Positions 41,442 to 59,316 of a stretch of 64,000 bases of DNA are shown piece by piece. The stretch lies in the IMG/VR virus record IMGVR_UViG_3300032232_001064, positions 8,860 to 72,859 of that record; one strand, 5' to 3'. Numbering within the stretch: the stretch's first letter is position 1; every line of letters starts with the position of its first letter. The notes beneath the pieces are model-generated. The model was given only the letters and a program-made list of their open reading frames with translations, was not told the DNA's origin and did not search any database. Position numbers and translations under genes: made by a program. Source of the DNA: a virus (taxonomy: Duplodnaviria; Caudoviricetes).

Positions 41442-42166
41442 TGTTCAGCACCCTCGCTCTTAGTAGATTCATCAGTGATCGGGCCACCAACGGCCCACGC
41501 GTCACATGTGCGGCTTGCCGCGCACTTGAAATCGAATGCCTCACAGTAGCCAAGTTCGGCCGCATCAATTGCGTCCCACGCATTCTGCCTACTGGAGTCG
41601 CCTTGCTCGAGCCCGCTCGCGATGCAGTCTCTCATCTTCGTAGTGACCACAAAAAAGACGCAATTACCGCAGAGACTCTTTTTTGCTTCGTCAGGAGTTA
41701 CCGACCAGTTGTCAGCTTTTTGCTGCCAAAATTCGTCGTTGTCTTCGTTCGGATTTAGAGGACCGTACGCAGCGGCTTTTATTGCGCGTTTGCGATTCTT
41801 TAGGTTGACTGTGATGTCCGATGTTGCGACAGGGCACTTGTCGTCGGCAGCCGCCGTGACAGCGCTTTTCGCAGGCTTCTGTTGAATTCGATCAACAGGG
41901 ATTGACATCTGCATTTTGTCATATTGATCAATGAACTCAGCATCGACAAAGTCTAGAGAGTACTTTGGATCGTCAATGTCATTGATGAACTCCGCATCAA
42001 CCTTTATCCAACCACCGCGCTCGCGGACAAATGTCGCGCGCTTTTCAATGCTTGAAAAAACTAGGTATTCGACCTCGCCAGTGTCTGTATCTTCTACTGC
42101 ATACAGGTCATCGCCTTGTTGCAATTGCTGTGGCCACCTAAGTTTTTGACCGGTATCTGTAGTCAC
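41438..42166 (-). CDS. hypothetical head-module protein with Cys-rich C-terminal domain
   Basis: NLKNRKRAI...YGPLNP...CGNC...GYC...KCAASRTCDAW. Confidence 0.75.
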   Translation of the reverse strand: MTTDTGQKLRWPQQLQQGDDLYAVEDTDTGEVEYLVFSSIEKRATFVRERGGWIKVDAEFINDIDDPKYSLDFVDAEFIDQYDKMQMSIPVDRIQQKPAKSAVTAAADDKCPVATSDITVNLKNRKRAIKAAAYGPLNPNEDNDEFWQQKADNWSVTPDEAKKSLCGNCVFFVVTTKMRDCIASGLEQGDSSRQNAWDAIDAAELGYCEAFDFKCAASRTCDAWAVGGPITDESTKSEGAEQ

Positions 42167-42534
42167 TTTTCGGTGTCCTTACTTGAATCATCAGCGATTT
42201 TGACGCCAGGAATGTCGTCATCCTCGATTGCTCTAATCATATACTCAACGCCACCGCTCGAGAATTTAAAGAGACCCTGTTCTTCGCTAAAGACAAACTT
42301 TGAGTTTTTGTCTAGAGGATACTGTCCTTGCCCTGTTGGACTGACGATCATTACAGCGCCGTTCGGGCCGTACATTAAAGAATTAGGCGATTTGCTTAGA
42401 TCATATGCAGCGTAGATGACACGTTTTCTACCGTCATACGCGCCAGACAGGCACTCGAAAATTGCTACTTCAGAAAGTTCATTTCTGTCAGCATTCGGCC
42501 CAGACGTGTCGAGTAGCTTTAGTTTACGAGTCAT
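42163..42534 (-). CDS. hypothetical protein
   Basis: 123-aa coupled ORF with GGGAG RBS. Confidence 0.7.
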   Translation of the reverse strand: MTRKLKLLDTSGPNADRNELSEVAIFECLSGAYDGRKRVIYAAYDLSKSPNSLMYGPNGAVMIVSPTGQGQYPLDKNSKFVFSEEQGLFKFSSGGVEYMIRAIEDDDIPGVKIADDSSKDTEK

Positions 42535-42552
42535 GCTTAGATTCTCCCACGA

Positions 42553-45500
42553 CTAGCGGTAAGCTGGACCGAATTTCTTCAATCCACCGGAGCTTCCATA
42601 TAGGTAATTAACAATCATTGTTCTGACATCGTCTGGGAGATCAAGACGAAGCATTACTAGAAGAGCGTCGTACACATCCTCTCCACTCATTTGACCGCCC
42701 CTAAACGCGTACATAATCGCATCGACTGTTTTAAGACGATCTTGAGCTAGGTCAAATCCTGCTAGTTCCTCACCTGAATGTCCGTATTTTCCAAACTTTA
42801 CCCATTTAGGACTGTCAGGATCTAAAGCTTGTACTTCTTGAAGACCAAGTATTGCAAGTCTTCTTGGCTCAGTACTGTTGAAACTCTCTATGCGAAAGAC
42901 TAATGGAGTGCCGTTGCCTGTTGTTTTGTACGCAATAATTTGACCTGTCTTTGGATTGTAGAGTGCGATCTTTGGGACGCCTGTTACGCCACCCAAATTA
43001 TCCATGCCCCAAAGGTCGTAGTTATTAGAAAGAGGGCCGTTTCGATCGTCTCTTGCCGATTCAATAAAGTCACGAGCGTTCGGCGCGTCCTCTACTAAGC
43101 GCTCTCCAAATTTTTCAAGTTCTGCTTTCTCAAAACGGCCTCTTTCAGTTACTGGTCCTCGTCCTGCGATTCCAATGAAATCTTCAATTGGGATTCCGTT
43201 GATTTCGGAGACGTTTCTTTGTCTAAGAAGATCAAGGACCACAGTTCTTTGGTCTTCACTGACAACGATGGCTGTTGCGTCCAACAGCGACGCGTGGTTC
43301 TTGAGCATAAACTCGTAGTATCCAGTGCCAATGTTAGCAAGATAGTCGTCATGTGCTGCGGTAGCGCCAAATAGATCATCGCTGTTGGCCCACGTGTCAA
43401 CTCTACGAAGCACTTTGTGATCATCGAAGATCACTGTAGCTGTTCCAGAATATGTTAGGTGCTCGTCTATGAGATGCGGACTCTGCATCTCTCCTTTTTG
43501 AGAAAGAAACACGTAGTCACCTGCACCTGACTTAAGGTCGTCAGACGTGCTAAGACCTTCGTAAATGAGTCCAAGTTGGAATCGCTGAGCCGCTGACATC
43601 AAAGCTCCCGGGCTGTTGTCCCCGTTCAAAATGATGTTTACAAGATATTCGGCTTTTCTTTCAGCTGTTACGCCATGCAGACTAAAGTCGTGAGTTAGAC
43701 CGCTTAATTTAGTTTTTTCAATGATCTTGTCAGCTAACTCTTGTGGACCGAGAACGTCGATAAAACCAGATGAGTTGGTTCTGACTGTAAAGTCTTCAGG
43801 TGCTACGCCAAAATCTTTTTTAATCTGAGCAAGGTAGTATTCTGCATCAGTTGGATTTCGAACTCCAGAAAGTGATCGTATGAGTTTTTTTCCAACAGCA
43901 AGATGAAGATCAGCCGGCGCGGCCTGACGTGGTTCTTTGACCCCTAACACAGCAAGCGCGTCTTGGACTGCCTCGTCTGACGGATACGTTTCACTAAACT
44001 CTATGTTGACAGCGTTAGCCGTCACACTAGGTTTCTGGCCATGCAGTTGCGAAAAATCTCTTGGCATCGCAACGATACGAAATCGCTTGTCAGGATCGAG
44101 ATACTCAAATGCTTCTGTATTTGCGCCGTACACGTAATCAGACCAAGACATTTTGCTTGGGTCTGAACTAAATGTTCCTGATACAGGATCGAATGTTCTG
44201 TATTCGATTCCTGAACCTTCTTTATGCTGTTTCCATCCGTCTTTTTTGCCACGCGCCTTGTTGTAGAGCTTAAATCCAGTAGCTTCAGTAAGCTTTAATG
44301 TCATTACGTGGCGAAGTTCCTGTCCACCGAGGTCGTCCGACTTTGAGCCGAACCTCTCAAGTACGCTGACTTTTACCACAAGGTCCTCAATGTCATCGCC
44401 GTCGACAAGTGACGCCATGATCGCTTGCGGCGTCCCTGACGTCTTACTCATTGCCTCTTGAAGCGACCCAGAACCTTCAATGTGCGATGAACTAAAGTCA
44501 CCGATAGGAAGCACGTTTGGATCGACTTCAGGTGCTTCTACGGGCTCGGGCGCGACAGGTTCTGGAGTTTCAGTAGCGGGTGGCTTGTCTATTGATTCAA
44601 GACGAATTCTTGTTGTTGGAAGAAACTCTGTGATCTCGCCGTATTCTTCGTCAACAGAGAGTGGCATCATGTACGGCTCAACCGAAACGACGCGGTATTT
44701 GCCGTTTGACACGACAGACTCGACTTCGTAGGGGAGTGCTGACGTTCCAGAAATATTAAATGCTTGAACACCATCAACTACGAGTACGACATCTCCAGTG
44801 TCCAAAAGCTGTGACTTAGCATAGTCAGACGGCGATCCTTGAAAAGCGCCATTGTCAAATTCTCTGACTACGTTTCCTAGGTTGTTCTCGAAAGTCCACG
44901 AAGACGGACGAAGATCGAACTCTTGGCCGACGTACGACAACTGATGCAGCGGGTGCGATTCATCATTGAGCGGCACGTCAAACTTGACCCAACGGGCGTA
45001 TGACGTGTTCTCTTTTACGCCAGCCGAACGCATTGCCCGCAGGAATGCTGACGCCGGCGTCATCTCTTTGTCAATCAGCGATGGATCGTCGTAGTACCGA
45101 GCAAGGTCAGTGTAGAACGACTCAGGCGTGAGCTTTCCTTTACCGATCATGGTCATGTAGACGTAATCTTCAACGCCCGTTATCGGCTTGTCTTTTGGAG
45201 TTCTTTTGAATGTTGAAGTCTCCTTCATTGCTTCTTGCGGACCAGCCTCTGTGAATATTGCTATTCCAGCGCGTAGGTTCTGCAGCAACGCGAATTCTTC
45301 TGATGCGGCATAGAGTGCGTCAGAATCTCCAAGCATTTCAATCATCTCTATCGCATTTGTAGCTTCTTGATCAACTACTCCAGAATCTCTAAACTCAGCG
45401 AGGTGATTGACCCAATTTGCGGTGAACTCTGATCCAACGGCGTTCGGTCCCTCGGCGATCATCTTTTCGAGCAACTCTTTGTCGCGCGGTGTGTGATCTG

Positions 45501-48500
45501 GAGCGGCGTTCGAACCCTCCTGCGTGAGGTCGGGTGTCGCGACGTGCGTACCGAGCTTTGTTGTCATTTCAGGCGTGTTGACTGGGGCGCCTGACGGAGG
45601 AGCGAAAGCTGGTTTTGGCTTCTCTTCAGCTTTTTTTATTGATTCGATTTGGTCGTTATAGCCCCAAAATTCTGTTCCATCGCTATTGCGGATTACAAAA
45701 CCCGGTTCGCCATTTTTGACATCATCTTGGATCTCGACAACGGTGCCTGTTCTTAGATCACCACCTGTGGCACGATATGTGAGAGTGTCGCCGACGCTAA
45801 ATCCGTACTTGCCGTCGTTTGGCGACGGCTTTAGCGGTCCAGGCTCGGCATCAGTCGCTGGTACTTGCTGAATTCCATTGCTTGGCGCCGGCTTGCGTTC
45901 CTCTTCGCCGCCGGCCCAAGCCTCTTCCTTTTTCTGCTCTTCGACATTCTCACGTAGAGCTTCTGTTGTACCGGCTTCAGGCTCTCCAGCCTCTCCTCCG
46001 CCTCCACTATCAGGCGCGGGGCCGGGTTCAACAACACCGACGGGACCCTCGCCGTCATCACGGCCATTCATTTCTTCGAGCAGTCGTAGTTGCTCTTCGA
46101 GGTTCTTAGGCTTCTTACTTTCGGGAACCTTGCCAGTGTCCAGCCACGGAGAATTGTCGTCGCCTTCCTTGATCACAGTCAAGGTCTTTGTGTTCTTTGA
46201 AGTGGTGTTGGCCTTCGGGCCCCACTTACCTTTCTTGACCTTGTCCGGATCACGAGGATCGACGTCTTGAATGATGTAGACGTTGATGTAGTCTGCTTCA
46301 TTGTAGCGAATAACGGTTCCAGCAAATCCCCACTTGTCTCGGACACGCATGCCGGGAGTGATGAAGATTCCTTCCTTGCTATAGCCGAGGCCGCTGCCGT
46401 CAGGAGGAAGACCCTTTCCGATCGGACGGTCAGCGAAGAGACGATGCAAGTTAGTGATGCTCGCACGAGTGAATATAGTGTTTGGTCCCTTTTCAGGCAA
46501 CCCGTCGAGCTTGGCGCTGAGATCTTGAAGCTCGCTTGCGGCCTCTTCGAACGTGATGTCGCCCTTTGTATAGCGATCAGCGATGTCAAGTGCTTCGTTA
46601 AGAAGGTCCTTGAACTGCTTCGTTTGGCTTGGCATTCCCTTTAGAGCATCGAGTGTGTCATTGAGATCTGCAACGATCTCTGACATTTGCTCGTCGAATT
46701 CGGGAGTGTTGACAGGCGGCAGACTACCAGTCGGCTCTACACCGTCCGGCGTCTCAGGGGTACCGGTTTCGCCGGCAGAAACTTCCTCATGAGGAACTTC
46801 AGGTGTGGCGGCATTTCGCTCTTCTGTAGACTGCAGCTCTGCGTTGAGCTTCGCGTCGACAGCCTCAGCGACTTTTTCGTTGTAGAACGCCTGTGCCTCT
46901 TCGAGAGTCTTCTTGTTTCCAACATTGACGTTGTCAACTGTGACGTCCCAATTGCCGTAGTAGTCTTCGCGCAGGTAGCTTGATTCGTTGCCCTTAGCGT
47001 CCCACTCACCGTCACCATTGTCAACAAGTTCGTACTTGTCGAGCTCAGCTTTACGAACAGCTGGGTCAATGGCGGCAGGCGCCTCAGGAGCTTGCGGAGT
47101 CTCTACAACTTCAGGCGCATTAGGCGCTTCAGATACCTCAGGTACCTCAGGCGCTTCAGGTGCCTGCGGAGTTTCTGGAACCTCCGGCGCGTTAGGTGCC
47201 TCGGGTGCGCCAGGTGGCGGAAGGTCAACGGCGGGACCTGTCGGCGGAGCCATGAAATCAACGGGCTCGCCTGTCGGCGGCGCGAATCCTTCAGGCACGT
47301 TCTTGCCCGGAACATTCGGCAACTCGTCGTCATTCGATGTGTAGCCATAGACCCAGTCCAGCGCACCAGGATCGAGACGCTTCTTAGCGCGAGTTACAGC
47401 GACATACGCGAGACGCATTTCTTCGGGAGACGGCATGATCGTCTCGCCAGTGTTCTTGTCAATGCGCGGGCCCCAGAAGTCGTCATAGATCTTGACATTG
47501 TCCCATTCAAGACCCTTTGAGCGGTGTGCTGTCGTGACAACAACATCGATGCCTTCATCTCCACCTGAAAGCGATTTCTTCAGCTTGTTGACTGCATCCG
47601 CTCGGCCTTCAGGGGACGAAACGCTGCGAACCCAGGTCTTGTTGTCCTTATTCCAAGCAAATCCAGCAGCTTTGATCTGATCTTTTACGTCAAACGTGGC
47701 GCCACCAAGAGCGATGGTGTCGCCAGTTACAGAGTAGTTCAACGGGCCCTTTGGCGTATCAACGACAAGGCCACTCATGCCGCTGCTCATGTCTACAGCA
47801 TCGACAAGATCGACTGGCTTTGCTTTACCGTCTTCACCGCCCTTATGGACTTTGACCCGGCTAAGCATGTCGTTTAGACCGTCGATACCAATCTCGTCGA
47901 TCAGGTCTACGAACAGTTTGAGGCGGCGATTTTCGCCGTCTTTCGCATCCTTGAGAACCTCATCCCAGGAACGGTACTGCGCCAATTCATCGCTTATATT
48001 CTTTGGCTTTTCAGCAGGGAAGGCACCGTCCATCAGCCAACGAGCTGTGTCGCTGAAGTCCTCAAGGCTGTTCTTGTAGTTAGCAGAAACGCCAACCGTA
48101 CGACCAAGTTCGAGTTGATCAAAGATCGCCTTTATGGCACCGGCGTTTGAACGCACGAGCACGGCATCTGCGTTGTCCATCGATCCACGGTCAACTATTT
48201 CGCCATCAGGCCCAGCACCCTCGATGCGGTACTTTGAACCTAGAAGCGACAAGAACCTGTTGCCGATTCCAGCGACTTGAGGACCAAATCTCCAAGACTT
48301 CGTCAGTGGTAGATCGTGAGTTGCCTCGACCTTTTGAAGTTCGTCTTCCGCTCCACGGAATGCGTAAATCGCTTGATTGCCGTCGCCGACATACACCTTT
48401 TGGATGCTCTGGTCGGCGATAACCTTACCGATGACGGGGTTGATGTCTTGTGCTTCGTCGAAGAAGATTGTATTGGCAGGAGTCTTAAGCCCGGCGCCCT

Positions 48501-51500
48501 GCTTTGACAGATCGGGACGAGAAAGAGCCCACATCTTAGTGACGTGCGTGTTTGTGACTGGTAGCCAACCTTTGGGATCGTTTAGGTCGTCCCACATCAT
48601 GTTTGCCCAGTCGACGAGCTCCTGTGGCGGATCGACTAGATCGAAGTGGCGCGGACTAATTTCATCATCGGCACTGATTCCAAAGTTGTTGATCCCTTTC
48701 TTTACGAGAGCGACGGTCTCGCGAGGGGTCAGTGTCTGCTCTTCGTCAGTGCCACGATTTATCGTGATACTTGTGATACCAAAGCGCTTTGCAACTTCAG
48801 ACGGAAAGACATTTGACTTATTATTTTTACGCTTGTCAGTGATATCTTTGCCGACAGCAGCCCAAGCAATTGAGTCAGCGGTACGCGCTTCAACGTTGTC
48901 TGGGAACTTTCCAGCAGCTTCTTCTTGGATTCCCTTGTTGAATGCTACGTAGATGATTCGATCTTTTGGCTTTTCCTTCTTGAATCGACGCGCAATAAGC
49001 TGAAGCGTGCTTGTCTTTCCAGTTCCAGCAAGTGCACGAACAACCGTGTCTTCGCCTGTCATCACAGCATCGATGATCTCGCGCTGCTGTTCTGTCGGCG
49101 GGAACTTTTCATCAGCGTACGGATCGCGTACATCAACGCCGTCACCGCTATGGTGGTCAATGTTTTGCGATCCAGCAAGGCTAGACGGCAAGCCGTCAGG
49201 GTCCACGCCGTCGTCCGGCTGCGGCGTCGCAGCTTTGATGAGATCGTCGGGGTCAGGCGTCGAGCACGGGCCGTTTGATCCGATGGAGGCGGTTAGTCCG
49301 GCAGTGCCGCAGTTCCAAGCGGCGGCGACAGCCTTGTCCATCTCGTACTGAGCAAGATCGTCTTTGTACTGCTCAAGTGCTGCGTCATACTCGGCCTTAT
49401 CGAGCTTTCTTGCTTCGAATCTGCCGTCAGCGTCCAGTAGATCTGTAGGCGTGTCCGGCTTATCAATAGCACGTGTAAGCATCGCGTCGATGATGTTCCA
49501 AGACGCTTCGGCATCGACATCAGCACTGTGCCAGCCAGAGATGCCGACATTTAGGTAGTCAGCAACCGGGCCAAGAGACTTACTTGCGCGGATCTGACCA
49601 GAAGATGTCTCAATGAAAGGCCCGTCTGGATTGGCCTTTGTCCACTTTGGAAGCGTAGAACCTGCCATGTCCATCGAGTCGATGGTGCCGGCGATGTTCA
49701 TCTCTAGACCCTGCTCACTCAGCGTTCGCTGAAGAACCTCAAGATCAAATGGCACGTTTTGGCCACCGAGAATTGGGCTTTCGCCTGCGAACTCAATGAA
49801 CTGCCTGTGAGCTTCGGCCATGCTCATTTGCTGTGCCAAGAACTCGTCTGTAACAGGCTGTCCATCACCTTGGAAAAGGTTGTCTCTTGACCAACCAGAA
49901 AGGCGGAACTCAGGATTCATGTAGACGTTGAATCGCTCGACAACCTTTCCGTCGCGGACGCGAACAGCGCCAAGTTGCACAGGTCGATTCAGCTCGTCCG
50001 GAGTGTCTGCTGTGCGGATTCCTGTAGTCTCATAATCAAAGAAAACCATTTCTGTGCCACGAATGACATCAGCTGCTTCTTGCCAGTTGTCGACACCTGT
50101 CAGCATTTCTTCCATCTGACCAGTGAAGCCACCTTGCTTTGGCTTCTTTGGCGCAGACGGACGGTGAAGTGCAGGCTTATCGCCCTTTGGCGGCAAAGTG
50201 CTGCCACGAGCAGCGTCGATTGTTGTCGACTCGTTCCACTCTTTGCGTTGTGATTCGTGCCCGGGGTAATAGCCCTGAACGCTTACCTTGCCCTTAGGAG
50301 TGGACTCGTCGCGGAAGACTTTTTCAATGACGAAAGAATCTCCGGCTGTGATGTCTCCAGGCTGAAGGTCCTGCGCCTCAAAGCCCATGGACTCCGTGAG
50401 CGGTACGGGTTCGGGGAAGAGGTTCGGATCTTCATTTCCTTCAGGAAGGTTGAACCGATCGATGATGTCTTGACGGCGAGACTTCAACTTATCTTTGATC
50501 AGCGCCGCTTGCTCTGGATCGCTGATCATCTGATCAACCATCTCGTCAATGCGAGACGGTGCGATGTCTCTGACCTTCATCGCACCGATGCGAAGCTGCT
50601 CGTCTGTCGCGCCTTCGAACACCCGGGCCGCTTGCGGATACGTATCAGGATCACGCATGATGTCGAGGTGGTTCGCGTTACGAGCGAAGAGCCCACCCTT
50701 AGGCTTTCCTGTTGCCGACCAAATAAGAGTGCCGCCCTGGTCAACGCGAACGGGCTCTCCATTCTTGTCGAGAACGATGTTTGTTGAACCATCGGCAACA
50801 TAGCCAATAACGTCGTAGTTTCCTAGCCACGCGTCAACAACAAAGTCCTCGCGAACTGCATCAAGAATCTTCGAATCATTGACGTCCATCGCGTCGATAA
50901 AGCCGCTAGTGTCAGCATTTGGAACTAGAGGAGAGACGATTCTAAGTTCGCCGTTCTTGTCTCCTAGTCCGGTGCCTGCAACGTTGACGCCGAGTTCTTC
51001 ATAGAATGACGCGGCAAGCGCCTCTACCTCAGCGTGCGATTGCGACCTAGGAACCTTTACATAGTACTCATTGCCTTGCGGATCCCTAAAGAACCCACCT
51101 TGGTTGCTACCAGTTCCAGCTGCAAACTGTTTCCAGTTTTCCATCCCAGTGTACGCAATTTTGCTGGGAGCTTTTTGTTCTTGAGCACTCGGCGCGTTAG
51201 GAGTTTCTTCTGGAACAGCAGTTTCTACAACCTCTTGTGCAGAAGGCTGTTTCGGCGTGCGGCGAACTTGCACGACGTATTCATCGCCGGTTTTCCCATA
51301 GGCTAGAGGTTGCTTGCGCACAGAAACTACTTCAAGATCGCCATATCCGAAGTGCTCATTTTCAGGGAACCACGAGAATTTTTTAGCCTCGATCGAATCA
51401 AGTTCTCCAGGTAGCGCTTCAAAAACTACACGAGAGCCTGGACGACCAGCGTGGATCATCTGCGAATCCCATGATCCATCTGTAAGATCGCGGTCTCCCC

Positions 51501-54500
51501 AGGACCTAGGCTCAAACCCGAACCTTGAACCTTCAGTCGTATATAGATCAAGAAGATCTGAATCATTGTTATCTACATAGACAACGCGATACAGAGGTAC
51601 TTCATTTGGCTTTGCTGCAGCCTTCGTCAAACGGAAGAAGTGGCCGACGGTATCGCCGCGTTCGAACGGAAGGTAGCCATTAAGAATGTCATTACGCTCT
51701 CGATTGAAGTGGTCGAAGCCACCGTAGTCTGCGCCTATTTGATCGTAAAGTTGCTTTGCTTCGTTGACAAGATTCTCGTCAACATTAGTATCGTCGCCGC
51801 CAATATGCCTAAAGATCGCATTGAAAATTTGATCAGTACTCTCTTCAGAGCCGGGTCTTGGCCACGGCGTCTTGAGGTGCTCTTCAATGCCTGAATCGCC
51901 GCCGTCGAGAGAAAGCAACATTCCCCAGAAGCCAGCGAATGCCGCATTCTCTTCTGAATTTTTACTTAGAGCGTACGGTAGAAGTTTTTCAAGAGTATTC
52001 TCAAGATCTCTTCCAATATTCCAACTCGTAGGCTCTTTAGTTAGGTCTTGCAGATCTTGTAGAACCTTGCCTATTTCGGCGTATTTGTCGTTTGTCTCGA
52101 CAAAATCCATGATTTCATGAGTCACGCGATCGACGTTCGCGGCAAATGGCGTCATCTTTGGCTGCTGACGAATCTCCGGCTCGCGAAGTCGCTCCAGCGT
52201 TTCGTTCGTTACCGGAATTTCATTGCGGAACGGGTTTGACTCAGGCTTATCAAGCATGCCGGTGACTTCGGCATTGATCCGCTCAACGTTGGTCATTTCG
52301 CGGTTTGGATCGAGCTTTGAGTCATATATTGCCGCGACAATCAAGTCACCGTCATGGCCTTGGTTGTTGATCGCCTCGAACAGGGCCTCGGCTTTTACAG
52401 ATTCTGGACCATCTCTGAACTCAAGTGTTCCTGATCCTGAAGCCGGTTCTCCGTTACTTGAAGGAAGAATAGCCTCTTTAAGAGCCTGGGCCAGTTCGTC
52501 GACTTCAAACATAGAGGAAAGTACGACGGGGTCGTCTGTAAAGTCTGCACTCTTCTCGTTTGTGCGTCCCTGCGGTTGGTACTCTCTAAAGATATCTACC
52601 TTGTACGCGCCAGGAGGCGTGTCCATGATGCTGTCAAATGCAGCGTCAAACGCTGATTTATCCATGGTGTCGTCCACTGACGCATCGTTTACCTCTACAG
52701 GTAGCGCGTCAATCTTGTCAACGATAAATGTACGATCTTCTCCGTCACCATGGCTAAATCCAACAACATTAGTAGTTCCAGTGTTTGGATTGGTGTAGAT
52801 GCGTTCCGGAGTGAACACACGTTCTTTTCCGTTATAGTCAAACCGAATTGGTGACTTGCTTCCTATAGCATCTTCAATTTGCGAACGAAGATTGCCGACT
52901 GTTTCGCCGATAAGAGGCGATGCGTCTTCCGGGATTTCTGGAGCGGTCTTCTTTTCGACCATCTTTTCGACAGTAAACGTTCGCTTTTCGCCGCTATCAT
53001 CAATGCCGATGACATTGGTGTTTCCGGTCTGATTGTTGACCCACGAGCCAGTCGGCGTGAATGTGCGCTCTTTACCGTTGTAGTCGAATCGAACCTGAGT
53101 GCCGTCGGCGATTGCTTGTTCGATCTGCGCGATCTTGTCCTGTGGCGACTTCCCGGTAATATCTCTTGGGCTACCTGTCGGCAGCGCAGCAGCAGCAGGT
53201 TCAGCGGCCTCCGGAGCGTTTACTTCTGGAGCGACCTGTTCGGGAGCGCCGGCTTCAGCCTGCTTTAGAATATCGTCAATCGTGTCCGCGACCGCAGGGT
53301 GCAGCTCACCGCGATCGCGCATGGCGAGAATCTCATCGGCTGTGAAGTATCCAGCGTCAGTTGTTTCATAGCCGTCGATCTTGTACTTGTCTTTGTCCTC
53401 AGGCTTGATATCAGCGATGACAGTGCTGTATCCCCAACCGGGCTCGACTTGGTTTACATGCACACCCTTTACTTCAGGTGTGTAGTCGAGGTTCATGTTC
53501 AGCTCTTCGCTGAGTTCCTCGAGTGCAGTTCCTACGGGATCATTCGCAGAGTCGCGGTCCTTGTACGCGCCGCCTGGGAAGCCCCACTTGCCGCCGCCAC
53601 CGGACACCCACGTCGCACGCTTGCCAAGCATGTAGCGGGGGACACCGTCTTCGCCTACGGTGCGAGGAAGAATGCCGGCGCCACCGTACTTACCCCAGTA
53701 GCGCTTTCCGTTTTCAGCGAAGTAGTAACCTTCGCCGTTTTCGTCTGACTTTGTGTCGCCTTCAAGTGGAATGAACAGCGGCAATACGGGAGGCGTCAAA
53801 CTTCCATCACGAATTTGATCGGCTGTGCCCCATGAGTAGCCGTAGCCAACCGCGATCCCGTCCTTGTCGGCGCGGATCGTTCCACCGTTCCAAGAGATCG
53901 GCTTAGCCGGCTCGGGCTCGGGTGTCGGCGCGGTCTCTGCAGGCTTTTCGAGCTCTGGAATATCAGCAGCAGGGGCATCACGCAGTGACGGATCAAGACC
54001 GGCGCTTTCCACCTGATCTTGCGTCAGAGGATCGCCGCTCGGGTCGGTGTACTCGCCCTTTGTAGCGTCCCAGCGCACTTCATCGCGATCAATTTTTGCA
54101 GCGCTCGGCGCTTCGGCAGCCGGAGGTAGCGTGGGCGGAGGAAGCGGTTGCTTTTGCTCGCCGGGCGTGGGCGGAGGAAGTACCTGACGCTCGGCTACGC
54201 TAGGCGGAGGAAGTTGTTCTTTCTTCTGATCTTTGCCTTCGGGCGGGTAGATCTTCGTTTCAGGAAGAACGTCTACTTCTTTTGCGTTACGGACAGCTTC
54301 AATGTCTGCAACTAGATTTTCGTGCCCTGTACGATCCTCAGGCTTTGCGCGTGTACCATCGAGGACGCGACCGATGAGATCGCTCCACGTCTGTGCTCTT
54401 GAAAGCATGAATTCACGGAACTTAGACCCAAGCGGCGCATCGTCAGCGGCGTCAAGGGCGTCATCAGCCTTGTCCATGGCTCCTGAAACCATTGACGGTT

Positions 54501-56388
54501 CGTAGTCCGGCAGATCAACGCCAGCAAAGTCCTGCATCACATAGGGGCTTTTGGCTTCACCAGAGATGTAGCCGGCACCATTTGGCGTAACTGAACTTGT
54601 TGTCTTGCCGTAAGGCGTGTCAAGTGCACGCTTAGCGTCGGCCATCCGATACCAAGTGTTCGTGCTGATGTAGTCGCCATCTGACATCGCCTGCACGAAG
54701 TTGCTTATATTCGTTGCAACGCTCAGAGAGATGCCGTTCGAGATGATCTGGTTGCTGTCCGTTGAGAAGTACGGACGATCAATTGTTCCACCGTCGAGAC
54801 CTCCAGCCCATGCGACAAGGTCGGCTTTGCCGGCTTCATCTAGAATGCCAGGCGTGCCGTCAAACGACGCGTACGCAGGATCCTTTGAGACATTCTTAAG
54901 TAGCGCCTTGTACTGCTTAGGCGTAAACATGTCAGACTTGCTGTTGGCGATCTTCTTTCGAAGATCGTCTGTCGGGTTCTGACGAGCAAAGTCAACAGCC
55001 TTTTGCCACTCGGGATTGTCGAACGAAGAAAATGTCGGATTCTTTATCTGCTTCTGAATCCAAGCTTCAGCTTTCTTCTCTGAATAGCTTGGCTTTTCAT
55101 CATAAAGCCGTTTCTTAAATTCTGCCTTAAAGCCGGGAGCATCCTGTGTCCACCCGTCTTCAAACATTCCATCGAGAAGCGCATCGTACGGCTCGCCGGA
55201 GTCGCCTGCTGAGGGCGGCGCTTTCTGCCCAGACTTTTCAATCTTTTCAGCATTTCTCTTTACAGTCTCGTATTTATTCGAGTCGCTCTTCGCTGCTTTC
55301 TGAACATCAGCCCACGACTTGCCACGCTTGACAAGGTCGCCAACAGAGTTGTTATCGAGGTTCGCACGGTGAAGTTCGTACGCAGGCGCGTCGCCAAGCT
55401 GCTTCAGCGCAAAGTAACCGTCGTCTGAGACGTACGTTTCGAGGTTGCCTTCTGTCTTGACTTTTGTCCAACCTGTGGGCTGATCAAGACGAGCAAGTTC
55501 AGATGAATCAACAAAAACCTTGTCGCTACCTGTTGCTCTACTCTTTACGCCGGGAAGTTTATCGAGAAACGGACGTGAAAGAATGGCGCGAGCTGTTTCA
55601 CCTTTTACAGAAGGAAGCGAGTAGATTCCGTCAGGTAGAACACCTGTATCTGTGAGCTCAACTTCAATGGCATCAGTTCCGGACGCGCCGACAACTCGAC
55701 CAGATACAGTGCGGAAACTCATGTCCGGCATGCGCACGTTAAAGATGAACCCGCCGCCCATGAAGGCAAACCGACCGTATCGGTCACGGCGCTGCATGCG
55801 TGCGCGTGCTGAACGCGCGGCGGAAGAGTTTCCACCCATTCCAAATCCGGCAACCGCAATAATTGGATTGAGCTTCAGCGGATCAGCTGTGACGTAGATC
55901 GGCGCGCTCGAGAGAGCAAGACGTGCGAATGCGTGATCACGCTGAGCAGATCCAGGGAGTGCACTAAACGCAGAAGCAACAAGTGGACGAATTGCCGGGT
56001 CAATCGCCGTATCAGCCGCAAGCCACTGCGCGTGCGCGCGGCGAAGAGCCGATGCAGTCATCGCGTGAGGCTTAGTCGACGCAGGGTGCCCGACAGGTAG
56101 CAGGTCGGCGTTGCGAAGAGCGCCTGTTGTCTGCTTATTGCGAATCGAGAGAGCAACATGCGCGTTCACGGCTCGAAGCGCAGAGAACACTCTGGCCTCA
56201 GGCTGCAAACGTGTCGTAAACGCGAGGTCACGGTTGGCCACAGTGATCGCGGCCTTGATCGGCACGCGACGCTCAGGCAACGCCTCGGCATTGGCGGCAT
56301 TTACGCGAAGAACGATCTGTGAACGCAGTCGTGCACCGTGGTAGTGAATGAACTGCGTTTTTGCCGTCTTGTTGCTACTCTTTTTCAT
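42553..56388 (-). CDS. giant 4611-aa polyvalent head/internal protein (NUDIX, 2x WYL-like, ART-like, kinase-like, DEDDh exonuclease, UvrD-like helicase)
   Basis: Single uninterrupted ORF in the head module. Motifs: KWGFPGG...ELSEEL; RFDYNGKER.FTP...RTF x2; YYVK...DAWLGNYD...VDQGG; FFDYETTG...QNVPFD...HSADVD; LAGTGKT...DEAQD...GDGNQAIY.FRG...HRSKGLE...YVAVTRAK. Confidence 0.9.
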   Translation of the reverse strand: MKKSSNKTAKTQFIHYHGARLRSQIVLRVNAANAEALPERRVPIKAAITVANRDLAFTTRLQPEARVFSALRAVNAHVALSIRNKQTTGALRNADLLPVGHPASTKPHAMTASALRRAHAQWLAADTAIDPAIRPLVASAFSALPGSAQRDHAFARLALSSAPIYVTADPLKLNPIIAVAGFGMGGNSSAARSARARMQRRDRYGRFAFMGGGFIFNVRMPDMSFRTVSGRVVGASGTDAIEVELTDTGVLPDGIYSLPSVKGETARAILSRPFLDKLPGVKSRATGSDKVFVDSSELARLDQPTGWTKVKTEGNLETYVSDDGYFALKQLGDAPAYELHRANLDNNSVGDLVKRGKSWADVQKAAKSDSNKYETVKRNAEKIEKSGQKAPPSAGDSGEPYDALLDGMFEDGWTQDAPGFKAEFKKRLYDEKPSYSEKKAEAWIQKQIKNPTFSSFDNPEWQKAVDFARQNPTDDLRKKIANSKSDMFTPKQYKALLKNVSKDPAYASFDGTPGILDEAGKADLVAWAGGLDGGTIDRPYFSTDSNQIISNGISLSVATNISNFVQAMSDGDYISTNTWYRMADAKRALDTPYGKTTSSVTPNGAGYISGEAKSPYVMQDFAGVDLPDYEPSMVSGAMDKADDALDAADDAPLGSKFREFMLSRAQTWSDLIGRVLDGTRAKPEDRTGHENLVADIEAVRNAKEVDVLPETKIYPPEGKDQKKEQLPPPSVAERQVLPPPTPGEQKQPLPPPTLPPAAEAPSAAKIDRDEVRWDATKGEYTDPSGDPLTQDQVESAGLDPSLRDAPAADIPELEKPAETAPTPEPEPAKPISWNGGTIRADKDGIAVGYGYSWGTADQIRDGSLTPPVLPLFIPLEGDTKSDENGEGYYFAENGKRYWGKYGGAGILPRTVGEDGVPRYMLGKRATWVSGGGGKWGFPGGAYKDRDSANDPVGTALEELSEELNMNLDYTPEVKGVHVNQVEPGWGYSTVIADIKPEDKDKYKIDGYETTDAGYFTADEILAMRDRGELHPAVADTIDDILKQAEAGAPEQVAPEVNAPEAAEPAAAALPTGSPRDITGKSPQDKIAQIEQAIADGTQVRFDYNGKERTFTPTGSWVNNQTGNTNVIGIDDSGEKRTFTVEKMVEKKTAPEIPEDASPLIGETVGNLRSQIEDAIGSKSPIRFDYNGKERVFTPERIYTNPNTGTTNVVGFSHGDGEDRTFIVDKIDALPVEVNDASVDDTMDKSAFDAAFDSIMDTPPGAYKVDIFREYQPQGRTNEKSADFTDDPVVLSSMFEVDELAQALKEAILPSSNGEPASGSGTLEFRDGPESVKAEALFEAINNQGHDGDLIVAAIYDSKLDPNREMTNVERINAEVTGMLDKPESNPFRNEIPVTNETLERLREPEIRQQPKMTPFAANVDRVTHEIMDFVETNDKYAEIGKVLQDLQDLTKEPTSWNIGRDLENTLEKLLPYALSKNSEENAAFAGFWGMLLSLDGGDSGIEEHLKTPWPRPGSEESTDQIFNAIFRHIGGDDTNVDENLVNEAKQLYDQIGADYGGFDHFNRERNDILNGYLPFERGDTVGHFFRLTKAAAKPNEVPLYRVVYVDNNDSDLLDLYTTEGSRFGFEPRSWGDRDLTDGSWDSQMIHAGRPGSRVVFEALPGELDSIEAKKFSWFPENEHFGYGDLEVVSVRKQPLAYGKTGDEYVVQVRRTPKQPSAQEVVETAVPEETPNAPSAQEQKAPSKIAYTGMENWKQFAAGTGSNQGGFFRDPQGNEYYVKVPRSQSHAEVEALAASFYEELGVNVAGTGLGDKNGELRIVSPLVPNADTSGFIDAMDVNDSKILDAVREDFVVDAWLGNYDVIGYVADGSTNIVLDKNGEPVRVDQGGTLIWSATGKPKGGLFARNANHLDIMRDPDTYPQAARVFEGATDEQLRIGAMKVRDIAPSRIDEMVDQMISDPEQAALIKDKLKSRRQDIIDRFNLPEGNEDPNLFPEPVPLTESMGFEAQDLQPGDITAGDSFVIEKVFRDESTPKGKVSVQGYYPGHESQRKEWNESTTIDAARGSTLPPKGDKPALHRPSAPKKPKQGGFTGQMEEMLTGVDNWQEAADVIRGTEMVFFDYETTGIRTADTPDELNRPVQLGAVRVRDGKVVERFNVYMNPEFRLSGWSRDNLFQGDGQPVTDEFLAQQMSMAEAHRQFIEFAGESPILGGQNVPFDLEVLQRTLSEQGLEMNIAGTIDSMDMAGSTLPKWTKANPDGPFIETSSGQIRASKSLGPVADYLNVGISGWHSADVDAEASWNIIDAMLTRAIDKPDTPTDLLDADGRFEARKLDKAEYDAALEQYKDDLAQYEMDKAVAAAWNCGTAGLTASIGSNGPCSTPDPDDLIKAATPQPDDGVDPDGLPSSLAGSQNIDHHSGDGVDVRDPYADEKFPPTEQQREIIDAVMTGEDTVVRALAGTGKTSTLQLIARRFKKEKPKDRIIYVAFNKGIQEEAAGKFPDNVEARTADSIAWAAVGKDITDKRKNNKSNVFPSEVAKRFGITSITINRGTDEEQTLTPRETVALVKKGINNFGISADDEISPRHFDLVDPPQELVDWANMMWDDLNDPKGWLPVTNTHVTKMWALSRPDLSKQGAGLKTPANTIFFDEAQDINPVIGKVIADQSIQKVYVGDGNQAIYAFRGAEDELQKVEATHDLPLTKSWRFGPQVAGIGNRFLSLLGSKYRIEGAGPDGEIVDRGSMDNADAVLVRSNAGAIKAIFDQLELGRTVGVSANYKNSLEDFSDTARWLMDGAFPAEKPKNISDELAQYRSWDEVLKDAKDGENRRLKLFVDLIDEIGIDGLNDMLSRVKVHKGGEDGKAKPVDLVDAVDMSSGMSGLVVDTPKGPLNYSVTGDTIALGGATFDVKDQIKAAGFAWNKDNKTWVRSVSSPEGRADAVNKLKKSLSGGDEGIDVVVTTAHRSKGLEWDNVKIYDDFWGPRIDKNTGETIMPSPEEMRLAYVAVTRAKKRLDPGALDWVYGYTSNDDELPNVPGKNVPEGFAPPTGEPVDFMAPPTGPAVDLPPPGAPEAPNAPEVPETPQAPEAPEVPEVSEAPNAPEVVETPQAPEAPAAIDPAVRKAELDKYELVDNGDGEWDAKGNESSYLREDYYGNWDVTVDNVNVGNKKTLEEAQAFYNEKVAEAVDAKLNAELQSTEERNAATPEVPHEEVSAGETGTPETPDGVEPTGSLPPVNTPEFDEQMSEIVADLNDTLDALKGMPSQTKQFKDLLNEALDIADRYTKGDITFEEAASELQDLSAKLDGLPEKGPNTIFTRASITNLHRLFADRPIGKGLPPDGSGLGYSKEGIFITPGMRVRDKWGFAGTVIRYNEADYINVYIIQDVDPRDPDKVKKGKWGPKANTTSKNTKTLTVIKEGDDNSPWLDTGKVPESKKPKNLEEQLRLLEEMNGRDDGEGPVGVVEPGPAPDSGGGGEAGEPEAGTTEALRENVEEQKKEEAWAGGEEERKPAPSNGIQQVPATDAEPGPLKPSPNDGKYGFSVGDTLTYRATGGDLRTGTVVEIQDDVKNGEPGFVIRNSDGTEFWGYNDQIESIKKAEEKPKPAFAPPSGAPVNTPEMTTKLGTHVATPDLTQEGSNAAPDHTPRDKELLEKMIAEGPNAVGSEFTANWVNHLAEFRDSGVVDQEATNAIEMIEMLGDSDALYAASEEFALLQNLRAGIAIFTEAGPQEAMKETSTFKRTPKDKPITGVEDYVYMTMIGKGKLTPESFYTDLARYYDDPSLIDKEMTPASAFLRAMRSAGVKENTSYARWVKFDVPLNDESHPLHQLSYVGQEFDLRPSSWTFENNLGNVVREFDNGAFQGSPSDYAKSQLLDTGDVVLVVDGVQAFNISGTSALPYEVESVVSNGKYRVVSVEPYMMPLSVDEEYGEITEFLPTTRIRLESIDKPPATETPEPVAPEPVEAPEVDPNVLPIGDFSSSHIEGSGSLQEAMSKTSGTPQAIMASLVDGDDIEDLVVKVSVLERFGSKSDDLGGQELRHVMTLKLTEATGFKLYNKARGKKDGWKQHKEGSGIEYRTFDPVSGTFSSDPSKMSWSDYVYGANTEAFEYLDPDKRFRIVAMPRDFSQLHGQKPSVTANAVNIEFSETYPSDEAVQDALAVLGVKEPRQAAPADLHLAVGKKLIRSLSGVRNPTDAEYYLAQIKKDFGVAPEDFTVRTNSSGFIDVLGPQELADKIIEKTKLSGLTHDFSLHGVTAERKAEYLVNIILNGDNSPGALMSAAQRFQLGLIYEGLSTSDDLKSGAGDYVFLSQKGEMQSPHLIDEHLTYSGTATVIFDDHKVLRRVDTWANSDDLFGATAAHDDYLANIGTGYYEFMLKNHASLLDATAIVVSEDQRTVVLDLLRQRNVSEINGIPIEDFIGIAGRGPVTERGRFEKAELEKFGERLVEDAPNARDFIESARDDRNGPLSNNYDLWGMDNLGGVTGVPKIALYNPKTGQIIAYKTTGNGTPLVFRIESFNSTEPRRLAILGLQEVQALDPDSPKWVKFGKYGHSGEELAGFDLAQDRLKTVDAIMYAFRGGQMSGEDVYDALLVMLRLDLPDDVRTMIVNYLYGSSGGLKKFGPAYR

Positions 56389-56403: not shown

Positions 56404-57507
56404 TCAGTCCAAGTTGGGTAGCAGATCACTATCGCGGCTGTCATATAGCCGCGTAGCAAGTTCGTATGCTCTATCGTACGCTTTTTCGCCGTCGTTGACC
56501 GCGCGCTTCCACGTTGCGCGGAGCGCTGGAACGATCTCGTAGCCCTGGCCAGAAAACTCAGCCAGCGCAACGATAGCTTCCTCTGCGCTTGCGTACTCGG
56601 CAGGATCCTTCAGCGTCACTGTAAGACTTGCCTTGACGCTTGCCGACGCTGTCACGCTTGAGGTGTCGGCAAGCGGATGTCCGTTCGGAAGTAGGTCGCG
56701 ATCAAGCGCTCGGTATCCGGACTTGACCTTACCGGTGCGAAGCGCCGACAAGTGTCCATCGACGCGGGCCATCGCCCATTGATCGCGAGACATGTGAGAT
56801 GAAGACGACGTCGAAAAGGACGTTGCGCCTCTGCGATAAACAGCCTTTATGGTCGAAAGTGTCGTGCGCTTGCCAGGCTGAGCCACCTTGTTGTGCGCAT
56901 CGACACGATTGAGCAGCGCCAGTTCGGTTCTTTCCGAGAACCGAACCGGGCGCGTTAGCTCGAATGGCTGATCTTCTACACTCTGCATTGCAGGTGCTGT
57001 TAGAAGAAGATCAGCCTCTAATTTTCCCGGCGCGACCTGGCCGTCAATGTTGAGAATTGACTTCATCTGCCACGCCCACTTCTGATGCTTATCAAGACGA
57101 TCAGCCAAGTAGTTCGCTATCGCCTGTTCATTGCACTCTGCTGCAACGGCGAATGCACTGAAGATCCTGGCGATGATGACGTCGTTAGCAGAAAGCAGCG
57201 CGGCGGTCATGTCCATGGGGTTGCCAGTAAACGACTCATCGCGAATCATCGTGGTTGCGCACATGTCGCTGAGGTTCAACGGTGCATCGAATCCGAGTTT
57301 GCGGATGTTCTCGGCAGTAGGATCGATCGACGACTCGACGTCGCCGTAGATCATTGCAAAGAACTCGTGAAACTGGTGAAAGTCTTCGCCACGAACGTTC
57401 CAGTGGCATGCCTGCGCGCGGAACGACATTGTGAACGAATCTGCTAACAGACTATAAAGTTCGCCGGCAAGCGCTTTCTTGCCGCTATTGTCCATCATGT
57501 CAAACAT
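56404..57507 (-). CDS. dps: Dps/ferritin-like protein fused to a phage head-protein domain
   Basis: HWNVRGEDFHQFHEFF..IY......D.TAENIRKLG and DKHQKWAW are Dps ferroxidase signatures; C-terminal KAVYRRGA...QWAMARV...DRDLLPNGHP module. Confidence 0.88.
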   Translation of the reverse strand: MFDMMDNSGKKALAGELYSLLADSFTMSFRAQACHWNVRGEDFHQFHEFFAMIYGDVESSIDPTAENIRKLGFDAPLNLSDMCATTMIRDESFTGNPMDMTAALLSANDVIIARIFSAFAVAAECNEQAIANYLADRLDKHQKWAWQMKSILNIDGQVAPGKLEADLLLTAPAMQSVEDQPFELTRPVRFSERTELALLNRVDAHNKVAQPGKRTTLSTIKAVYRRGATSFSTSSSSHMSRDQWAMARVDGHLSALRTGKVKSGYRALDRDLLPNGHPLADTSSVTASASVKASLTVTLKDPAEYASAEEAIVALAEFSGQGYEIVPALRATWKRAVNDGEKAYDRAYELATRLYDSRDSDLLPNLD

Positions 57508-57519
57508 TGGTACCTTCTC

Positions 57520-59253
57520 TTACTGTAAAGGCGGCGCTTGCGGCGTGGCCGTGGGGGTCGGTTCAACCGGTGCGGCTGGTGGTTGTTCTGCTGGAGGCGC
57601 TGCCTCAGTAGGCGGGGGTCCACCCTGCAGCATCTGTTGAAGCGCGTCAGGCATCGGCGCAACGCTGTTTGCCTGCTGTGCTGCTCGAGCTGCTGTCAAC
57701 GCCTCAGGCGCGAACGCACCGATCATCGCCTCGGTGAGTTCTGGCGTGATCATGCCCTTTTCGAAGACTAGGCGCATCGCGATCTCGGTCGGACTTGGCG
57801 CGTCAGCGTCGCTAAAGCCGTGTGCGCGACGCCATGTGTCGAGCGACACCGCATGGCGATCGAAGCCGGAATCAGCGTCCATAGCGCGGTCGTTACGCGT
57901 CGCTACCTGGCTCGGGTCGAACCAGATGACAACATTCTCGACCTCTGCTGCGCTGTAGCCTGTCGCAACAAGGTACGGACGCAGGTACACCACGGTCAGC
58001 GCGTCAGCGATCAGCAGCATCAGCGGCTCGATGTGCGCCTTGTATAGCGACTCGTCGATCTGAACGGCGTTGCTGTACTTGACGTTTGCGAGGCCGGTGA
58101 CGATGTCCTTCGGCACGTCGAGGCCCTGCATGATGCGCTCGAGAACGCGATCAGCGCGCTGCGCGAGTGCGGGGTCAAAGCTGCGCTCGAACTTGAACTG
58201 CTTGATCTTGTCGCCAAGTTCAGCAGGTCCACGGATGATCAAGGGAACAACGGCACTGGCGCTGTCCTCGTCACGAATCGGCGTGGTCATCGCGTCGATG
58301 AGCTGGTCTTCAAACTCGTCAGCGACCTCTTCCTGCGTGATGCCGGGCTCGAGGTTTGTCTCATCGTCGTACGGATAATCAGGATCCGGCGACGCGGCGA
58401 CGCTAAGTCCGTCAGGAAGGTACAACGCACCGGCGTTCAGTCGCGAGCGTGCGGTTGCGCGGAACGTGCGGTTCAACAGCAATAGCTCAGCGCAGAGGTC
58501 AAGAAGTCCGCGTAGACTTGAATCTGCCTCTTCTGAAAACCGAGGATGCGCTCGCCAGATTCGACCAACAAACGCGTTCTTCGGAAGTGAGATGACGCCG
58601 TTCGAATCGCTGCCGCCCATGGAAGCTGTGCCACGGTTTGTGAGCAGATCGCGACGCGGTGCGATGCCGTAGTTGCTGCGCTGGTCGACCTGAACCTCGT
58701 CGACAGAGCGAATGTCCCATGACTCAGGAACACCTGTGCCACGACGCTCCGGCAACTGAACCAGATAGCACTCACCTGCAACACTCAGGTTGAGCGCCGC
58801 GTCCTTTAGAAGGCCTGCCTGGCCGCCATACGCGCTGTCGAGGCGCTTTAGGGCTCGTTCTGCCGCTGCAGCCAGTCGCTCGTCGATCTTGCTCGAATTG
58901 CGAACAGAGACCGGTGTCTCAGCAGGGTTGTCCACAACCGCAGCGTAGAGACGAATACGAGAGACGATACTTGCAACCAAGTTAAAGGCATACTTGATCT
59001 CACCGATCGCATCGTAGTACTCCCAGGCCTCACTCTGCCACGCGGCCGAGTATGCCTGTCGGCGAACTCTGAAGTGTTCAGCCTCGCCCTTATCATTGAG
59101 GTTGACCTTGGTCGCTGCGGCCGTCATCGGTCGAGGAGCGGAGTACGCGGCCGGGGACGCCGGGGTGTATCCGAAAGGTGCCAACACCTGTGACGAAGAA
59201 GCTGGTGCCGTTGTCCGGCGCGTTGGCGCTACTTTTCGGCTGAATACGCCCAC
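57520..59253 (-). CDS. portal protein
   Basis: GTG 59253 after AGGAG; WQSEAWEYYDAIGEIKYA...LSVAGECYL...RIWRAHPR..EADSSLRG...RSRLNAG...GLDVPKDIVTG...N...IDES: actinophage portal pattern. Confidence 0.9.
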   Translation of the reverse strand: MGVFSRKVAPTRRTTAPASSSQVLAPFGYTPASPAAYSAPRPMTAAATKVNLNDKGEAEHFRVRRQAYSAAWQSEAWEYYDAIGEIKYAFNLVASIVSRIRLYAAVVDNPAETPVSVRNSSKIDERLAAAAERALKRLDSAYGGQAGLLKDAALNLSVAGECYLVQLPERRGTGVPESWDIRSVDEVQVDQRSNYGIAPRRDLLTNRGTASMGGSDSNGVISLPKNAFVGRIWRAHPRFSEEADSSLRGLLDLCAELLLLNRTFRATARSRLNAGALYLPDGLSVAASPDPDYPYDDETNLEPGITQEEVADEFEDQLIDAMTTPIRDEDSASAVVPLIIRGPAELGDKIKQFKFERSFDPALAQRADRVLERIMQGLDVPKDIVTGLANVKYSNAVQIDESLYKAHIEPLMLLIADALTVVYLRPYLVATGYSAAEVENVVIWFDPSQVATRNDRAMDADSGFDRHAVSLDTWRRAHGFSDADAPSPTEIAMRLVFEKGMITPELTEAMIGAFAPEALTAARAAQQANSVAPMPDALQQMLQGGPPPTEAAPPAEQPPAAPVEPTPTATPQAPPLQ

Positions 59254-59316
59254 AGGTTGTCTCCTCGTCACGTGTAACGGAGTTGGTTAGATCTTACATC
59301 ACGCTACATTACGTGA

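Follow-up and report, generated by a model that had tools for sequence, protein, structure and literature searches.

Tailed phages can package large enzymes in the head and eject them together with the DNA, as is known for P1 DarB, for T4 Alt and other T4 internal proteins, and for the N4 virion RNA polymerase (vRNAP). T4 Alt is an ADP-ribosyltransferase (ART) of the R-S-E type, and the vRNAP, with its 3500 amino acids (aa), shows that ejection is possible for proteins of such a size class. A protein of 4611 aa (hereafter, the giant protein) is encoded within a 64,000-nucleotide (nt) stretch of tailed-phage DNA (IMG/VR virus record IMGVR_UViG_3300032232_001064, positions 8,860 to 72,859; hereafter, the window), which represents most of a linear 72.9-kb record that CheckV estimates to be ~50% complete. 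In a program-made list of open reading frames (ORFs), its gene occupies 42553..56388 on the minus strand (the strand of all features of the window given below), begins with ATG and runs in a single unbroken frame. Both the coordinates and the length agree exactly with an earlier note, made from the sequence alone, which had described the product as a multi-enzyme head protein and a probable injected counter-defence toolkit. A WhiB gene lies on the same record (positions 8182-8385, outside the window; Pfam E 4.7e-18), and the virus is therefore taken to be an actinobacterial phage. The giant protein (an identical protein is on record as P0152) is probably a member of an extensive, previously undescribed family of polyvalent effectors from uncultured, mostly freshwater, actinobacterial tailed phages. 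Its architecture and genomic context support a polyvalent, head-associated effector protein, and from its position and by analogy we infer that it would be packaged and injected.

The phage-encoded polyvalent proteins, which have been argued to be packaged in capsids and injected (Iyer et al. 2017, PMC5512222), provide the principal comparison, and further precedent for the concept is found in Iyer et al. 2022 (PMC9503650). Polyvalent proteins are recognized by their 2-15 distinct effector domains (the giant protein has at least 10 recognizable domains) and by a phage packaging or head gene context, which for the giant gene consists of portal and Dps genes upstream and head genes downstream, an arrangement that is the same in four relatives. 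Among the signature domains of polyvalent proteins, ARTs and a helicase are present in the giant protein itself, while the MPTase-PolyVal and ArdC-N pair and GNAT domains are found in its relatives. The proteins of PMC5512222 and the giant protein have in common the presence of many effectors on one polypeptide, a portal/terminase-type gene setting, the shuffling of modules, and ART, kinase, and helicase domains. However, the family-defining N-terminal domain of the giant protein is in neither Pfam nor PHROGs, a UvrD-type superfamily 1 (SF1) helicase with a DEDDh exonuclease stands in place of the methylase-SNF2 dyad, the kinase is CtkA/HipA/PI4K-like as opposed to a truncated Ser/Thr type, and the DarT-like C-terminal module is a further difference. 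The word 'actinophage' is absent from the main text of PMC5512222.

The MuF (SPP1 gp7 / Mu gp30) polymorphic toxins (Jamet et al. 2017, PMC5576092) are encoded in the same slot after the portal gene and, like the giant family, join diverse toxins at the C-terminus to an N-terminal head domain that stays constant; moreover, a DarT-like module related to that of the giant protein is carried by a MuF protein, P0237. In contrast to the MuF toxins, the giant protein has no MuF domain, is ten times longer, and carries many cargo domains rather than one. No immunity gene was identified adjoining the giant gene. The giant protein has no homology to DarB (methylase plus superfamily 2 (SF2) helicase), to the capsid-targeting sequence of Alt, or to vRNAP; no DarB-type N6A methyltransferase match was found in it, and its helicase is of the UvrD-type SF1 class and not SF2 (DExH).

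The family is defined by the N-terminal domain (aa 1-340; 55369..56388), in which a helical part is followed by a near-invariant basic motif (GGNSSAARxxRAxxQRRDRxGRFAxMGG) and then by a beta-rich part. An HMMER scan with this domain against 1.84 billion representatives (clusters at 50% identity) matched 361 proteins at E<=1e-3, including 135 at E<=1e-30; the domain is N-terminal in every one of the 361, and nearly all of these proteins are 2000-7000 aa long. From metagenomes in ENA, JGI, Logan, and NCBI, a further search listed 125 proteins with lengths of 2536-7986 aa, and the contigs of the listed relatives reach ~150-230 kb. Amongst GenBank phages, megablast of the giant gene gave no match, and tblastn with the N-terminal region, the C-terminal third, or a divergent N-terminal homologue retrieved only the metagenome-assembled genome (MAG) DSL-LC01, in which the relative is annotated as a 'hypothetical protein' that the corresponding genome paper does not discuss. 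A single-protein locus scan found nothing, and a pattern-based, non-exhaustive scan of 185,579 species genomes detected no N-terminal domain in prophages.

No match to the N-terminal domain (aa 1-340) was found in Pfam, PHROGs, or NCBIfam, and an ESM Atlas feature search with it was uninformative (scores 0.75-0.76). Within it, a DUF5824-like sub-module containing DLLPxGHP (aa 19-116; 56041..56334) is homologous to the C-terminal module of the Dps fusion protein encoded next to the giant gene (hhalign 94.3%, E 1e-7), and when the minus strand of the window is translated in its three frames, the DLLP motif appears only three times, with one copy in the giant protein and two in the Dps protein. 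A MuF identity for the N-terminal domain was considered and rejected (no Pfam Phage_Mu_F match, PF04233; hhalign against the MuF protein P0237, 0.5%).

The setting of the gene is conserved together with this domain. Upstream lie the portal gene (57520..59271; phrog_776 E 1e-104) and the gene for a 367-aa fusion of Dps/ferritin with a DUF5824-like C-terminal module (56404..57507; Pfam Ferritin E 3.5e-15), and the giant ORF starts 15 nt past the stop of the latter. The Pfam DUF5824 match in the Dps fusion has an E value of 2e-3, compared with 1e-9 and 5e-8 in the neighbors of the giant genes of relatives. Downstream, ORFs of 123, 242, and 1558 aa follow on the same strand. The earlier note had placed the gene between portal/Dps and a protease; the portal and Dps side of this placement stands, while the downstream 'protease' is so labeled only by PHROGs and two small ORFs intervene. 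In the four relatives that were fetched (DSL-LC01, L002, L003, and L005) the gene order is identical: TerL, peptidoglycan-binding protein, portal, Ferritin/DUF5824, giant protein, and then proteins of ~120, ~240, ~1400-1580, ~186, and ~630 aa. Among these phages, portal proteins are 74-80% identical and the giant N-termini ~50% identical, a difference consistent with faster evolution of the giant protein.

This conserved slot bears on whether the giant protein is instead a late-expressed multi-enzyme of the cytoplasm that is not packaged, made along with the head proteins and serving, for example, in the treatment of DNA ends, late host shut-off, or superinfection exclusion. Such a role would suit the exonuclease, UvrD helicase, and Nudix domain, which resemble replication and repair enzymes, and the packaging of the giant protein is argued by analogy. 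However, it is unlikely given that all four fetched relatives have the gene in the same head-operon slot, that a conserved N-terminal domain is combined with variable cargo, that the relatives have polyvalent signature domains, and that the C-terminal module is also found on a MuF head protein.

To follow the distribution of the modules, they were mapped by BLAST onto 193 relatives with lengths of 2000 aa or more. The N-terminal domain is constant across the family (192 of 193), and the enzyme modules are gained, lost, and rearranged. A module around aa 1250 is present in 152 relatives, the kinase in 106, the DarT-like module in 105, the exonuclease in 84, the first ART (ART1) in 80, the WYL repeats in 52, the helicase in 43, the Nudix domain in 31, and the second ART (ART2) in 13. 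The DSL-LC01 orthologue, for example, is 3289 aa long and is without the exonuclease-helicase block. The full domain set of the giant protein recurs in nine metagenomic relatives, and the combination is therefore not unique; the suggestion that it may be undescribed holds to the extent that no description was found in the literature searched. Among the relatives listed, MPTase-PolyVal and ArdC-N are found in P0103 and in 11 of 120, and several GNAT domains are found in P0098, which has the same N-terminal domain. ADPrib_exo_Tox is matched in 25 of the 120 relatives listed (including P0016 at E 5e-16), while the giant protein itself is unmatched by this Pfam family. Other cargo in relatives includes DRAT (PF07357; P0223 and P0224), pentapeptide repeats (P0153 and P0174), KTSC, and, in P0095, a Pfam PI3_PI4_kinase domain that cannot be aligned by BLAST with the kinase of the giant protein. 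The occurrence of DRAT, the P0095 kinase, and the pentapeptide repeats in relatives indicates that the cargo repertoire is wider than that of the giant protein.

Domain by domain, eight of the nine domains read from the sequence in the earlier note (a head-module domain, NUDIX, two WYL-like repeats, an ART-like domain, a PI3/4K-HipA-like kinase, a DEDDh exonuclease, a UvrD-like SF1 helicase, and a second ART-like domain) are as proposed. The ninth, given there as a possible ART-fold domain, is more precisely DarT-like. The Pro/Glu linkers said to join these domains were mapped at four places, as Pro/Glu/Ala-rich stretches (aa 732-767, 798-835, 1037-1078, and 3036-3117).

Neither the ART domains nor the kinase of the giant protein are seen by sequence libraries (Pfam, PHROGs, NCBIfam, and PDB sequences), and their assignment comes from predicted structures. 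In an AlphaFold2 model of aa 1240-2010 (alignment of 11 sequences, mean predicted local distance difference test (pLDDT) score 75.5), the structure matches of ART1, a predicted R-S-ExE ADP-ribosyltransferase (aa 1444-1712; 51253..52059), are Tre1 (6dre, Z 10.1), Vis (8.7), and Iota Ia/HopU1/Plx2a (8.4), and R1601, S1629, E1676, and E1678 are each conserved in 10 or 11 of the 11 sequences. The second candidate R-S-ExE ART, ART2 (aa 3778-3935; 44584..45057), is homologous to ART1 (hhalign 94.8%, E 5e-8). Its R3799, S3829/3830, E3888, and E3890 align with the ART1 triad and are invariant in 5 sequences. Its fold matches are weak and all of the ART type (Z 6.4 for Tre1, 5.5 for SpvB, and down to 5), so that ART2 is called from a model of moderate confidence. 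Locus scans for ART2 in viral contigs and metagenome contigs found nothing.

The kinase domain (aa 1744-1983; 50440..51159) has a bilobal fold that in the model matches Helicobacter pylori CtkA best (Z 14.5 over 213 residues, root-mean-square deviation (rmsd) 3.6; Foldseek prob 1.00), followed by CotH (12.5), PI4KIIalpha (12.2), HipT/HipA (10-11.5), and then LepB and PI3Ks. The motifs are invariant in the 11 sequences (the G-loop GSNxGG at 1760, K1778, E1789, D1852, N1857, D1859, N1870, and D1883). With the CtkA, HipA/HipT, CotH, and PI4K types the domain therefore shares a fold (Z 14.5-10) as well as the glycine-rich loop, Lys, Glu, catalytic D/N loop, and DxG-type Mg site, while identity to them is just 12-16% and the giant protein has no Pfam match to a kinase. 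A profile search of aa 1240-2010 against PDB sequences gave chance-level matches, and no shorter homologues of aa 1240-2000 were found.

ART genes in freshwater phages have previously been given a different role. Kavagutti et al. 2019 (PMC6802176) described ART genes in 24 freshwater phages, some of them predicted to infect Actinobacteria, and proposed a role against grazers for these VIP2-like ARTs. By extension, the giant protein might be a 'Trojan horse' toxin directed at eukaryotic grazers and freed as protists digest infected cells, and the presence of ADPrib_exo_Tox in its relatives is in keeping with this. Such a function is nevertheless very improbable, as no translocation or receptor-binding component was detected, the gene is a head-operon gene whose product has an N-terminal head-module domain, and the UvrD helicase, DEDDh exonuclease, DarT-like, and WYL domains, along with the ArdC-N of relatives, act on bacterial-type nucleic-acid targets.

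The C-terminal effector appears to be of a different kind from ART1. In a model of aa 3590-4611 (alignment of 17 sequences; pLDDT 62 overall and 70-93 for aa 3969-4409), a structure search against 48,161 PDB representatives, independent of Foldseek, returned only four chains with Z>=8 for aa 4216-4411 (43156..43743), all of them DarT: E. coli DarT1 (10.9), Thermosipho (10.4), Thermus (9.3), and M. tuberculosis (9.0), aligned over 149-156 residues with rmsd 3.5-4.1. The next match was the tRNA 2'-phosphotransferase Tpt1 (Z 6.9), and the best Foldseek match was DarT1 (8baq, prob 1.00, E 2e-2 with the 1022-residue query). An alignment of 14 sequences shows conservation of H4233, R4269, S4280, D4284, Y4292, and E4359. 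This predicted ADP-ribosyltransferase is thus DarT-like at the fold level, in a model of moderate confidence. A kinship with ART1 was also tried, and hhalign shows no relation between the two. DarT itself is known as a host anti-phage toxin, whereas the DarT-like module is phage-encoded and lies inside a giant protein. The module has the fold of the DarT of DarTG (Z 9-10.9), with conserved His, Arg, Tyr, and Glu in a presumably ART-like arrangement; in contrast to DarTG, no Macro or NADAR match was found within the giant protein by Pfam scan.

In relatives, the median distance from the end of the DarT-like module to the C-terminus is 19 residues, and its only short homologue is P0237 (755 aa), a MuF protein (Pfam Phage_Mu_F E 7.5e-15). 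The C-terminal 290 residues of P0237 align with aa 4136-4405 of the giant protein (blastp E 4e-20) and keep the H/R/S/GGxDY/E/EINGIP motifs. Its gene directly follows a Portal_Mu gene and is followed by one small ORF and then a Peptidase_S78_2 gene, on a contig (L032) that also has WhiB and ferritin genes. From these findings it follows that, in a smaller actinophage, this slot is occupied by a toxin fusion of the classical MuF type with the same effector, which by analogy provides the best contextual support for capsid delivery of the giant protein. The L032 contig is unrelated to the giant-bearing phages, and its ferritin gene is likewise in the head module; its prohead protease (Peptidase_S78_2; L032:8677-10956) is fused to Zeta_toxin/AAA_33 kinase domains and is another enzyme carried by a head-assembly protein.

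The DarT-like module may be read more boldly. It is conceivable, albeit doubtful, that it is an offensive phage DarT that is delivered from the capsid, ADP-ribosylates host single-stranded DNA (ssDNA), and halts replication within seconds, with the phage DNA spared and the N-terminal domain acting as a capsid-targeting device that replaces MuF. Either base hypermodification or the helicase, exonuclease, and Nudix domain delivered along with the module would then protect the phage DNA, and the whole would be a mirror image of the host's own DarTG defense. DarT-type modification of ssDNA is reported to stall replication (PMC7003065).

The remaining enzymatic domains are for the most part recognizable at the sequence level. 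The DEDDh 3'-5' exonuclease (aa 2112-2310; 49459..50055) matches Pfam RNase_T (E 4e-12, aa 2115-2299), phrog_192, and the NCBIfam DEDD exonuclease, and its motifs are intact (DYETTG at 2118, PFDLE at 2213, and HSADVD at 2287). The UvrD-like SF1 helicase (aa 2423-3006; 47371..49122) matches Pfam UvrD-helicase, UvrD_C, and AAA_19, phrog_1967 (E 2e-84), and FBH1 (E 4e-30), again with intact motifs (AGTGKT at 2454, DEAQD at 2644, and TRAK at 2999). The two WYL repeats (aa 1085-1230; 52699..53136) are matched by Pfam WYL (E 5e-8) in two stretches spanning about aa 1090-1229. The Nudix-fold domain (aa 884-1040; 53269..53739) was matched to RenU in PDB (6uuf; aa 884-995) at E 2.4e-13 with the segment and E 1.8e-11 with the whole protein as query; Pfam NUDIX is below threshold in the giant protein and matches in the relative P0021. 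Its Nudix box, EELSEELNM, is non-canonical with respect to REUxEExGU (R to E, G to N, and a longer loop; consensus GX5EX7REUXEEXGU), and Nudix activity is therefore uncertain.

Taken as an infection-time effector, the giant protein would act as follows. The N-terminal domain, the first ~100 residues of which are homologous to the Dps-fused module, would direct the protein into the procapsid or anchor it there, a role that the related module may also have in the Dps fusion. Whole, or cut at the Pro/Glu linkers by the prohead protease, the giant protein would leave the head with the DNA, and its enzymes would act ahead of any phage gene expression. Host proteins would be modified by the two ARTs and the kinase, in the manner of T4 Alt and HipA/CtkA-type kinases. 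The substrate of ADP-ribosylation by the DarT-like domain would be nucleic acid, most probably ssDNA of the host, with arrest of replication as the outcome. DNA ends would be the target of the exonuclease and helicase as a pair, and the Nudix and WYL parts would serve in handling or sensing molecules derived from nucleotides or ADP-ribose. The counter-defense role previously suggested is not specifically supported, as host takeover accounts at least equally well for a set of two protein-type ARTs, a HipA/CtkA-like kinase, and a DarT-like ART.

Several points weigh against a packaged and injected polyvalent effector. A protein of ~505 kDa would have to cross the tail unfolded or be cleaved beforehand. 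The N-terminal domain is not MuF and could be matched to neither a fold nor a function, and the only relative in a GenBank phage belongs to a MAG and not to a cultured phage. With its deviant box, the Nudix domain may be inactive. The link to DarT is at the fold level only, with no DarT sequence match in profile-versus-PDB and Pfam searches and a weak Foldseek E value (2e-2).

Some of the same observations raise the question of whether the giant protein is mainly a structural internal head or ejection protein that is cut by the protease into many pieces, with the enzymes as secondary passengers or partly inactive. Its large size, the Pro/Glu/Ala linkers, the conserved modules without a known fold (aa 1240-1440 and 3210-3430), the deviant Nudix box, and the second very large head-operon product downstream (1558 aa) can all be cited for such a role. 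On the other hand, the catalytic motifs of both ARTs, the kinase, the exonuclease, and the helicase are intact and conserved, as are the residues of the DarT-like domain, and the central part of the protein varies more than a fixed structural role would allow, which makes a primarily structural function improbable.

The concept of polyvalent head-associated effectors is already known, while the family, its N-terminal domain, and a DarT-like module on phage head-operon proteins appear to be new within the literature searched. If delivered with the DNA, the giant proteins would rank with the largest ready-made infection toolkits known and with those richest in enzymes, and their family is widespread, with no fewer than 361 clusters at 50% identity. 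The N-terminal domain is a new candidate capsid-targeting domain that could be used for loading cargo into actinophage heads, and the family offers a natural catalogue of shuffled effectors to be mined for anti-defense or host-shutoff enzymes. The DarT-like module would be a first indication that the DarT fold, known from a host anti-phage toxin, is also phage-borne in a head-associated setting. For the ART genes of freshwater actinophages, the giant family suggests a bacterial-target alternative to the 'Trojan horse' view.

Five further regions belong to the layout of the giant protein. The module at aa 1240-1440 (52069..52671), the commonest after the N-terminal domain, has an invariant motif (FDxMFxTPxGAYKPxIF...GRT...DYTDDP); its first ~130 residues are modeled with pLDDT 85-94, yet no structural or family match was found. 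The conserved module at aa 3210-3430 (46099..46761; 48 of 193 relatives, and also DSL-LC01) has no Pfam or NCBIfam family match. Before the DarT-like domain lies an alpha+beta module (aa 3964-4151; 43936..44499) with uninterpretable matches of just Z 4-5 to TBP-like, type III secretion system chaperone, and triphosphate-tunnel folds. A C-terminal extension (aa 4420-4611; 42556..43131) is present in 2 of 193 relatives and has pLDDT <50. The region with the first of the Pro/Glu/Ala linkers (aa 350-880; 53749..55341) has zero Pfam or NCBIfam family matches and is kept in only 1-11 of 150 relatives.

With regard to the neighboring genes, the DUF5824-like C-terminal module of the Dps fusion is ~190 aa long and has DLLPNGHP in the middle and ...DSDLLPNLD at the end; in relatives, it is either joined to ferritin or encoded on its own, between the ferritin and giant genes. 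The 1558-aa head-operon protein (36765-41441), which is 1366-1580 aa long in relatives, has PHROG matches to portal (phrog_859, positions 387-746), head maturation protease (phrog_18402), and virion structural protein, and zero Pfam or PDB sequence matches. It may be a protease/scaffold fusion, a MuF-like protein, or a further carrier of cargo.

The length of the giant gene and its uneven guanine-plus-cytosine (GC) content, from 45% to 61%, are the only observations that might suggest several genes falsely fused by assembly or gene calling. However, the frame is unbroken, and collinear proteins of 4400-7000 aa occur in independent ENA, JGI, Logan, and NCBI assemblies, on account of which an artefact can be regarded as excluded. 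The unevenness in GC instead suggests a mosaic origin of the modules: GC is 52-58% over most of the gene, 56-61% at aa ~730-1130, and 45-48% at positions 41600-44600 of the window, which comprise the final ~2 kb of the giant gene (the DarT-like module and the unique C-terminal extension) together with the two small downstream genes.

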